Below the pieces are notes generated by a model. It was not told the DNA's origin, did no database searches, and saw only the letters and a list, made by a program, of their open reading frames with translations. Shown piece after piece: positions 38,691 through 39,803 of a stretch of DNA of 64,000 bases; position 1 is the stretch's first letter, and each line of letters opens with the position of its first letter. The position numbers and the translations under genes were made by a program. The DNA comes from Amoebidium appalachense (Eukaryota > Protista > Ichthyosporea): contig CAVNZM010000008.1 in NCBI GenBank assembly GCA_963693365.1, positions 5,774,613-5,838,612 on the forward strand, written 5' to 3'.

Positions 38691-39109
38691 TGTCTTGTGG
38701 TCGATGCACTGCTTGATCATTAAGCACGAGGCCGCCACAGTGGGGGCCTTTTTTGTGTCTAATACTAGTGTGGGTGTGTTACTAGCTAGGAGTGTCCTAA
38801 GCCACCTAGGTATTTCCGAGTTGTGTTTGAGTGTAAAACTGAAAGCTGTGGTCTGTCTAACGTCTAGTGTATGAACCTGTGGGACCTGTGTGTGCAGGGA
38901 GCTATCCTCCGCTGCCAATGCGTAGAACATGTCTACGTTTTGGATTTTGTCCTGGTGCTGAACATGTCTACGTTTTGGATTTTGTCCTGGTGCAGAGACT
39001 AGCGATCTTGCTAGCCTTGAGATCACAACCTAACCACTGCCGATGGTTGTGATGACGCCAGTAAAGGCGTGCTGGCTTTTACCCCAGCGAGAAGAGGATG
39101 AGAAAAAGA

Positions 39110-39182
39110 TGATCCCGACGAGATTTGAACCCGCGACCCCTCTATCTCCGGTCGAGTGCTCTACCAACTGAGCTACGAGATC
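39110..39182 (-). tRNA. tRNA-like gene in the 3' LTR (anticodon GGA, short variable arm, probably Phe-derived)
   Basis: GATCTCG TA GCTC AGTTGGTA GAGC A CTCGA CCGGAGA TAGAG GGGTC GCGGG TTCAAAT CTCGT CGGGATC A, followed by TCTTTTT. Confidence 0.75.
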
Positions 39183-39479
39183 GGTTAAGATCTCGCAGGC
39201 CACCAGCCGATCATGATCTAATTCATGCGATCGGACTGGATAACGATACCATCTTCCAACATCCCCACTCAGGACGAATCGCAGAATCAGGTTAGGGTGG
39301 ACTGCCCCCTCAGTCCCCACTGAACCTCTGTTCATGCTACCATTTTGGATTTTGTCCTGGTGCAGAGACTAGCGATCTTGCTAGCCTTGAGATCACAACC
39401 TAACCACTGCCGATGGTTGTGATGACGCCAGTAAAGGCGTGCTGGCTTTTACCCCAGCGAGAAGAGGATGAGAAAAAGA

Positions 39480-39552
39480 TGATCCCGACGGGATTTGAAC
39501 CCGCAACCCCTCTATCTCCGGTCGAGTGCTCTACCAACTGAGCTACGAGATC
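39480..39552 (-). tRNA. tRNA-like gene in the 5' LTR (anticodon GGA)
   Basis: Same 73-nt cloverleaf, with B box GGTTCAAATCCC and a T5 terminator downstream. Confidence 0.75.
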
Positions 39553-39803
39553 GGTTAAGATCTCGCAGGCCACCAGCCGATCATGATCTAATTCATGCGA
39601 TCGGACTGGATAACGATACCATCTTCCAACACTACGTTAAACTTAGCCATTGTGTGGTGTGTGCCCGAACTCGTGTGGTTGTGTTTATGTTTTTTTTTTT
39701 TTTTTTTTTTTTTGTTGTGTGTTTGAGGTGTAGCAACAGCCCAGAAGGAACTGTCACCGCGTTACCCTAGTGCGAAAAACCGCACTAAAAGAAAGGTGTA
39801 GCT

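Follow-up and report, generated by a model that had tools for sequence, protein, structure and literature searches.

The 64-kb stretch of DNA analysed here (the window) carries a 659-bp TRIM with a complete tRNA-like cloverleaf in each LTR. Its design places it in Helenus, a kind of TRIM already known, of which it forms a new family. We hold with good confidence that this is a young, non-coding, multi-copy Helenus-type family, whose tRNA-like LTR promoter is likely read by Pol III and whose mobilisation likely depends on a Copia element. Within this model, three things are observed directly: the arrangement of LTRs, PBS, PPT and TSD, A and B boxes without defects, and the presence at several insertion sites.

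Anatomy of the element and its tRNA-like module

The element lies on the minus strand and runs, in its sense direction, from 39631 to 38973. Its features are as follows (window coordinates, strand):

39343..39631, minus: 5' LTR, 289 bp, TGTTGGA...TCCAAAA, with a non-canonical AA end
38973..39261, minus: 3' LTR, 289 bp, identical to the 5' LTR at 287/289 positions
39262..39342, minus: interior, 81 bp, non-coding
39335..39342, minus: PBS, TGGTAGCA, abutting the 5' LTR and opening the interior
39262..39271, minus: PPT, at the end of the interior, next to the 3' LTR
39632..39636, plus: TSD copy CTACG, element-upstream side
38968..38972, plus: TSD copy CTACG, element-downstream side
38925..38994, plus: 35-bp tandem duplication of LTR end and flank (units 38925-38959 and 38960-38994), spanning the downstream junction
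39480..39552, minus: tRNA-like cloverleaf of the 5' LTR, 73 nt (A box 39534-39545, B box 39491-39501)
39110..39182, minus: tRNA-like cloverleaf of the 3' LTR, 73 nt
39473..39477, minus: T5 terminator-like run after the tRNA (second copy 39103-39107)
39518..39521, minus: CCGG palindrome, tRNA positions 32-35 (3' LTR copy 39148-39151)
39559..39566, minus: leader segment (LTR 66-73) complementary to tRNA nt 1-8; the predicted hairpin competes with the acceptor stem
39343..39472, minus: predicted U5 region with four hairpins

The first-pass annotation had described two near-identical 289-bp LTRs, an 81-bp interior, a CTACG TSD and a PPT, and all of these were confirmed, the LTR identity being measured at 287/289. 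Both differences between the LTRs fall inside the tRNA, at LTR positions 127 and 141, and the last bases of the interior, just before the 3' LTR, are TGAGTGGGGA. A third CTACG at 38933-38937 is a product of the 35-bp junction duplication, which either arose after the insertion or represents an assembly slip. Both window LTRs, as well as the dominant contigs of the sequencing runs described below, have TG...AA termini instead of the canonical TG...CA; a TG...CA end was seen only in a single depth-23 contig of run X4. The three other LTR elements of the window have CAACA ends. No second copy of the TRIM was found within the 64-kb window.

ARAGORN labels both cloverleaves, at LTR positions 80-152, as tRNA-Ser(GGA). 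Rfam also recognises both as tRNA (57.4 and 52.6 bits; gathering score 29) and has no other match anywhere in the window. Both programs agree with the earlier description of a 73-nt cloverleaf starting about 80 nt into the LTR. Its intact A and B boxes and the T5 were confirmed too, and this T5 (LTR 155-159) is the sole run of at least four T on the sense strand of each LTR. In the anticodon loop C33 replaces the usual U33, and the arm contains a G30-A40 mismatch. The Ser anticodon sits on a body with a short variable arm and A73, which we take to be a mismatch by tRNA identity rules. From these features the LTR tRNA is predicted to be non-translating, so the earlier impression that it does not look like a translating tRNA is upheld as a prediction. 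Consequently, tRNA counts for the genome would include false Ser(GGA) genes from LTRs.

The same annotation had called the tRNA body Phe-like, which our comparison does not support. We collected 76 viral-contig loci with the same first 19 nt as the LTR tRNA, corresponding to 40 distinct sequences. ARAGORN labelled 33 of these 40 as Lys, one as Arg and one as Ala, left five unlabelled and called none Phe; the "Ala" sequence is Lys by sequence, and an overlap caused the mislabel. Many of the viral-contig tRNAs with this 19-nt start also share the acceptor 3' strand, while the 12 loci matched by the other acceptor/T-arm pattern of the LTR tRNA are for the most part Asp tRNAs. Without gaps, the closest of the 40 is identical at 54/73 positions. 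The body therefore looks Lys-like, a resemblance rather than a claim of origin because the comparison sample was viral and biased. An exact-pattern search of viral contigs with the 29-nt tRNA start gave 0 matches. A giant-virus origin of the leader hairpin found no support, as the leader complement occurs in 0/40 of the viral-contig tRNAs sharing the first 19 nt.

The predicted U5 region folds more stably than its shuffles (z -3.7, with 0/200 shuffles as stable, and z -4.4, with 0/300), whereas the last 130 nt of three neighbouring LTRs reach only z -0.6 to -1.1. The tRNA alone (z -1.2 and -1.4) and the interior (z -0.1) fold no more strongly than shuffles. In a transcript from tRNA nt 1 to the T5, the acceptor stem is predicted to form with p 0.85. 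An exact 7-nt leader complement within the last 25 nt arose in 93 of 20000 shuffled U3s. The thermodynamic argument for masking of the tRNA by the leader hairpin is weak, since random 14-nt leaders collapse the acceptor stem too in 144/400 trials.

Relation to Helenus and to the Copia elements of the window

TRIMs with a tRNA in the LTR were named Helenus (TRIMp3) by Kojima 2024 (Biology 13:119; PMC10886601), who described them from rusts, agarics, six animal phyla and Selaginella. Their published lengths are 311-1263 bp and their TSDs 4-6 bp; a length of 5 bp is given for the TSDs of fungal and plant Helenus and of Copia-dependent families, and a link to Copia is drawn for the fungal members (PMC10886601). 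Pol III transcription is unproven for published Helenus, and how helpers recognise and package non-coding TRIMs is stated in that paper to be unknown. Two later papers (PMC12859917, PMC13570524) appear only to cite the name. The first-pass annotation knew of no established TRIM family with a whole tRNA in the LTR; Helenus is exactly such a design.

The window TRIM is non-coding, interspersed and multi-copy and shares with Helenus a length below about 1 kb, a tRNA with A and B boxes in both LTRs, a PBS and a PPT, a 5-bp TSD, a probable Copia-type helper, an anticodon at odds with the tRNA body and a T run after the tRNA. Several rust and agaric families have a PBS that begins with the same TGGTAGCA, and Helenus-1_SaGl (oyster) and Helenus-1_CroRib (rust) have a CCGG loop start like its own. 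What is new here is the family, its possible host group (if an ichthyosporean, the host lies outside Table 1 and Table S1 of Kojima 2024), the TG...AA termini found across the family, and an 18-nt PPT/LTR start that is the same as in a Copia element.

The search for a described family thus gave a match at the level of the kind and none in sequence. No listed Helenus family has the LTR start or the 10-nt PBS of the window TRIM: the 13-nt LTR start and the 10-nt PBS gave 0 exact-string matches in Data S1 (PMC10886601), where line breaks could hide one, inspection of parts 1, 4, 5, 6, 8 and 9 by eye revealed no matching family, and Table S1 holds no 289/81/659 entry. Ichthyosporea do not occur in the Kojima supplement, and a literature search on TRIMs in Ichthyosporea found no paper; this is possibly the first Helenus family in that group.

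The element also differs from its closest counterparts. The LTR of the window family ends in AA; some published Helenus consensuses also depart from CA, ending in TA or GA. In the rust Helenus families examined the tRNA lies near the 3' end of the LTR, whereas here it comes early (80 of 289) and is followed by a long structured U5. Cassandra of plants and Ajax of nemerteans are likewise TRIMs whose LTR has an internal Pol III promoter derived from the gene of a small RNA, but there the LTR contains 5S rRNA sequence, whereas Rfam finds only a tRNA in the window TRIM. Cassandra is reported to form long tandem arrays (PMC7215508), against which the 2:1 depth ratio given below argues for the window TRIM. 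Plant non-TGCA Copia elements are likewise described as transposition-competent with a mutated terminal dinucleotide, but TG...AA is absent from the eight end types tabulated for lotus Copia (PMC9804982), and the window TRIM is non-coding in addition. A tRNA-derived SINE (SINE2, with a 5' tRNA head, a tail and no LTR, PBS or PPT) is ruled out by the presence of LTRs, PBS and PPT.

The window also contains two Copias (Pfam RVT_2, integrase and gag) and a second TRIM without a tRNA. Over 18 nt, the PPT and the first 8 nt of the TRIM LTR match the Copia junction at 59150-59167 without a difference (E 0.003), and the motif AGTGGGGA occurs five times at the 3' end of this Copia (52925-60134), twice in the 81-bp interior and three times elsewhere in the 64 kb. 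Both Copias have 5-bp TSDs, and all four LTR families of the window begin with TGTTGGA. In contrast to the 3'-end type of primer site in the tRNA-bearing TRIM, the neighbouring Copias and the second TRIM have an anticodon-half primer site, GGTTATGGGCCC. Because the PBS types differ, the adjacent Copia is probably not the direct helper, which is more likely a related Copia elsewhere in the genome. The earlier designation of the PBS as iMet-3'-end type holds for its start, shared with fungal Helenus said to use the 3' end of initiator tRNA-Met; the match to this start covers 8 nt only, and PBS type is not lineage-specific.

The Copia at 44024-49904 (minus) has identical 766-bp LTRs and a 5-bp TSD; near 47300-47400 its RT ORF overlaps the gag-integrase ORF in another frame, and the nearest relatives of its RT are at most 45% identical. 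The Copia at 52925-60134 (plus), with the five AGTGGGGA repeats at its 3' end, has LTRs of about 975 bp that are 98.5% identical and a 5-bp TSD. The second TRIM (60932-62017, plus) has 392-bp LTRs differing at one site, a 302-bp interior, an anticodon-half iMet PBS, a TATA box and no tRNA; it sits in a poly-G run, and its PPT is close to that of the Copia at 44024-49904.

Other features of the window were recorded as well. Just upstream of the repeat that hosts the TRIM lies a degenerate tandem repeat (37236-38450) with spacings of about 95-105 and 201 bp. An inverted repeat pair of about 730 bp, 94% identical (39804-40526 and 43240-43950), surrounds ORFs at 40312-42468 and is possibly a mobile element with long inverted ends. 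Repeated fragments at 18714-19051, 28227-28790, 30903-33183 and 36149-36865 belong to one DNA-transposon-like coding family with fungal Atlas look-alikes, and a Tc5-type DNA-binding domain is encoded at 62024-62470 (minus). An intronless ORF at 12952-13665 (plus) resembles fungal Mug135_C/DUF3294 proteins by weak Pfam and Atlas signals; for two ORFs of the window the Atlas offers fungal clusters as look-alikes, at low recognition scores. Protein searches aimed at the host lineage gave no match. Finally, a GH19 chitinase exon lies at 1471-1659 (minus), its first exon likely being near 3900-4350; among nine relatives at E up to 0.001 the sole named one, third best at 60% over 45 residues, is from the ichthyosporean Abeoforma whisleri.

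Copies in public sequencing runs

We screened 24 listed runs by words of the element and examined seven distinct runs in detail. At least half of the words were present in 20/24 runs, from five named studies, one of which is possibly the source of the window. No RNA run was among those listed; X1, possibly RNA, was left out of account for expression. In all four runs examined over 38500-40100, we observed an empty-site contig that joins 38932 to 39632 with one CTACG and skips 699 bp, that is, the 659-bp element, 5 bp of TSD and the 35-bp duplication. Since the DNA around the element is a repeat too, these empty sites are possibly paralogous, yet they still fix the TSD.

A few flanks were recovered too: two other downstream flanks in run X11, one upstream flank in X2 and two upstream flanks in X10. 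One of the X11 flanks, at the LTR 3' end, terminates in GTGAT, and the X2 flank, at the LTR start, opens with GTGAT; GTGAT is thus a second 5-bp TSD, pieced together from two runs. Empty sites, three further flanks and a second TSD together identify a mobile family. The LTR-interior unit was present in 7/7 distinct runs, with 0-3 differences per main piece, and the tRNA-bearing unit was the dominant form in all runs examined. The recent mobility claimed at first pass is borne out by these results, and, in line with the checks it had proposed, the runs examined yielded a further TSD and family LTRs that keep the tRNA.

The depth of LTR to interior was about 2:1 (2646/1253 in X4; about 4500/2130-2300 in X11), the ratio that dispersed full-length copies predict. 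In X4 and X10 the depth of the main contigs exceeded that of flank or variant contigs about 40-130 times. This hints at tens of copies, although contig depth is not a copy number and tens of copies should yield many more flanks than were recovered; the low flank count may be due to contig simplification. At three LTR sites the window departs from the run consensus, which marks the family as young. The three C-to-T differences between consensus and window are too few for an inference of methylation, which we discarded. Two exact-pattern scans of metagenome contigs gave 0 matches.

Two contigs of run X4 show parts of the element in other surroundings. One departs from the LTR exactly at tRNA base 1 (window 39552) into unrelated upstream sequence, so the tRNA module exists in another context too; the source is possibly a donor SINE, a tRNA gene or a sister family. 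The other, a low-depth contig of 996 nt matching 39305-39387, has an LTR end of the canonical CA type, then the PBS with 38 nt of the interior, followed by about 900 nt of other sequence beginning like a second tRNA A box; it represents either a SINE insertion or a longer parent element.

Transcription model, its alternatives and the anticodon-loop palindrome

Our model suggests that Pol III would start just upstream of the 5' tRNA. Most transcripts would stop at the first T5, and a minority would read through to the second T5. The resulting RNA, about 450-460 nt long, would have the tRNA itself as its terminal repeat R, enough for strand transfer. The host initiator tRNA-Met would prime at the PBS, and Copia, as the 5-bp TSD and the shared PPT junction suggest, would provide Gag, RT and integrase; it would also tolerate the AA end. 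In the least certain step, which we propose only tentatively, the palindromic anticodon loop would pair two genomic RNAs for packaging. Against this model, a T5 directly behind the promoter should truncate most transcripts. T5 termination is reported to be about 90% efficient in S. pombe (PMC3592421), so some read-through exists, and Cassandra RNA is described as starting in the 5S part of the 5' LTR and ending in that of the 3' LTR (PMC10886601). We agree with the first-pass annotation that a Pol III promoter is the likely, still putative, role of the module, given the intact A and B boxes, the T5 and the lack of a TATA-like box.

An alternative, which we regard as unlikely, is an ordinary TRIM driven by Pol II or by read-through, in which a tRNA or SINE is a passenger and the boxes are intact merely through youth. 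The family is nearly invariant over the seven runs, so conservation cannot show selection, and the X4 contig that departs at tRNA base 1 puts the tRNA module in another context. However, the 79-nt U3 of the TRIM has no TATA-like box, unlike 3/3 other LTR families of the window, divergence has affected the anticodon arm but not the A and B boxes, and published Helenus families repeatedly show this layout, including the T run behind the tRNA. It is considerably less probable still that the module is kept for a functional small RNA, be it a Ser tRNA active in translation, a decoy or a primer for the element itself. A complete cloverleaf of 57.4 bits with a well-predicted acceptor stem (p 0.85) would fit such a product, but the Ser anticodon on a short-arm, A73, Lys-like body, C33 and the G30-A40 mismatch speak against it, the tRNA's 3' end is not complementary to the PBS, and Kojima 2024 concluded likewise for Helenus (PMC10886601).

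Least credible of all is a one-off tRNA or SINE insertion into the LTR of a single copy, copied once, or an assembly artefact. The lack of a second copy in the 64-kb window, the local irregularity of the 35-bp duplication and the absence of matches in the two metagenome scans would agree with it. The presence of the tRNA-bearing unit at half or more of its words in 20 runs from five named studies, its dominance over other forms, the other flanks and the second TSD largely refute it. 

The palindrome in the anticodon loop bears on the packaging step of this model. By chance, a 4-nt palindrome would be expected about once in 16, and such palindromes are not enriched in the unit as a whole (20/367 positions). 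Among the published fungal Helenus LTRs, 48/56 have a strict 4-nt palindrome at the same place, starting at position 32 or 33 (25/26 LTRs of part 1 and 23/30 of part 4, counted by eye); of the other seven LTRs of part 4, three are wobble-compatible, one is shifted to 34 and three have none. The loop variants are CTAG, CATG, CCGG, ACGT, GTAC and TGCA. Between families that appear related, the differences are those expected from RNA pairing, with CCGG versus CTGG in two rust families and CTAG versus CCGG in two oyster families. Control sets contained such a palindrome in 1/94 natural tRNAs (19 anticodon types, Lys-heavy) and in 16/122 possible Y-U-anticodon loops. The contrast between 48/56 fungal LTRs and 1/94 natural tRNAs suggests an RNA-dimerisation signal.

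Thus, we put forward as a possibility, one we judge well short of probable, that the Helenus anticodon loop is kept self-complementary, even at the loss of U33, so that genomic RNAs, or the two ends of one RNA, pair for packaging or strand transfer. On this dimerisation reading, CTGG would be a wobble intermediate between loop palindromes. Several points stand against it: the counts were made by eye and not scripted, four base pairs are a weak contact, and many bivalve, fish and wasp families have no loop palindrome. Moreover, the rust families are related to one another, so their counts are not independent. A CTAG loop is natural for AGN anticodons and could therefore be inherited.

The Kojima main text (PMC10886601) has no mention of palindrome, dimer, kissing or hairpin, and a literature search, with subscription papers and bioRxiv supplements outside its scope, returned nothing on a dimerisation role of the Helenus loop. 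In Ty1, palindromes are reported to drive dimerisation, and two papers appear to be at odds on the importance of kissing loops (PMC6844567, PMC5454406). According to these sources, the Ty1 motifs PAL1 and PAL2 are also self-complementary and lie near the 5' end of a Copia-type genomic RNA; they were established by experiment and lie outside any tRNA fold, whereas the candidate motif of the window TRIM is a 4-nt palindrome deduced from sequence.

Self-complementary elements also occur elsewhere in Helenus, as judged by eye. In part 8, the anticodon arm of about 11/19 wasp LTRs contains a longer palindrome, and in several others a leader hairpin overlaps the tRNA start. Many bivalve Helenus of Data S1 (PMC10886601) have a palindrome of 6-10 nt and varying sequence just before the A box, with a CTAG hairpin further upstream, and in fish Helenus the leader hairpin is conserved and includes a compensatory pair. 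On the dimerisation reading, such a hairpin next to the start of the tRNA, as predicted for the window family and seen in some wasp, fish and bivalve families, would also shield the RNA from tRNA processing; leader hairpins are reported to be able to block eukaryotic RNase P (PMC8925977).

If our reading is true, the captured tRNA would serve as promoter, R region and packaging signal at once, and the window family would extend the Helenus kind to the unicellular relatives of animals. The palindrome lead bears on how helpers recognise and package non-coding TRIMs. With its youth, its near-identical copies and the intact-looking Copias close by, the family offers a good setting for the questions of dimerisation and Pol III transcription.
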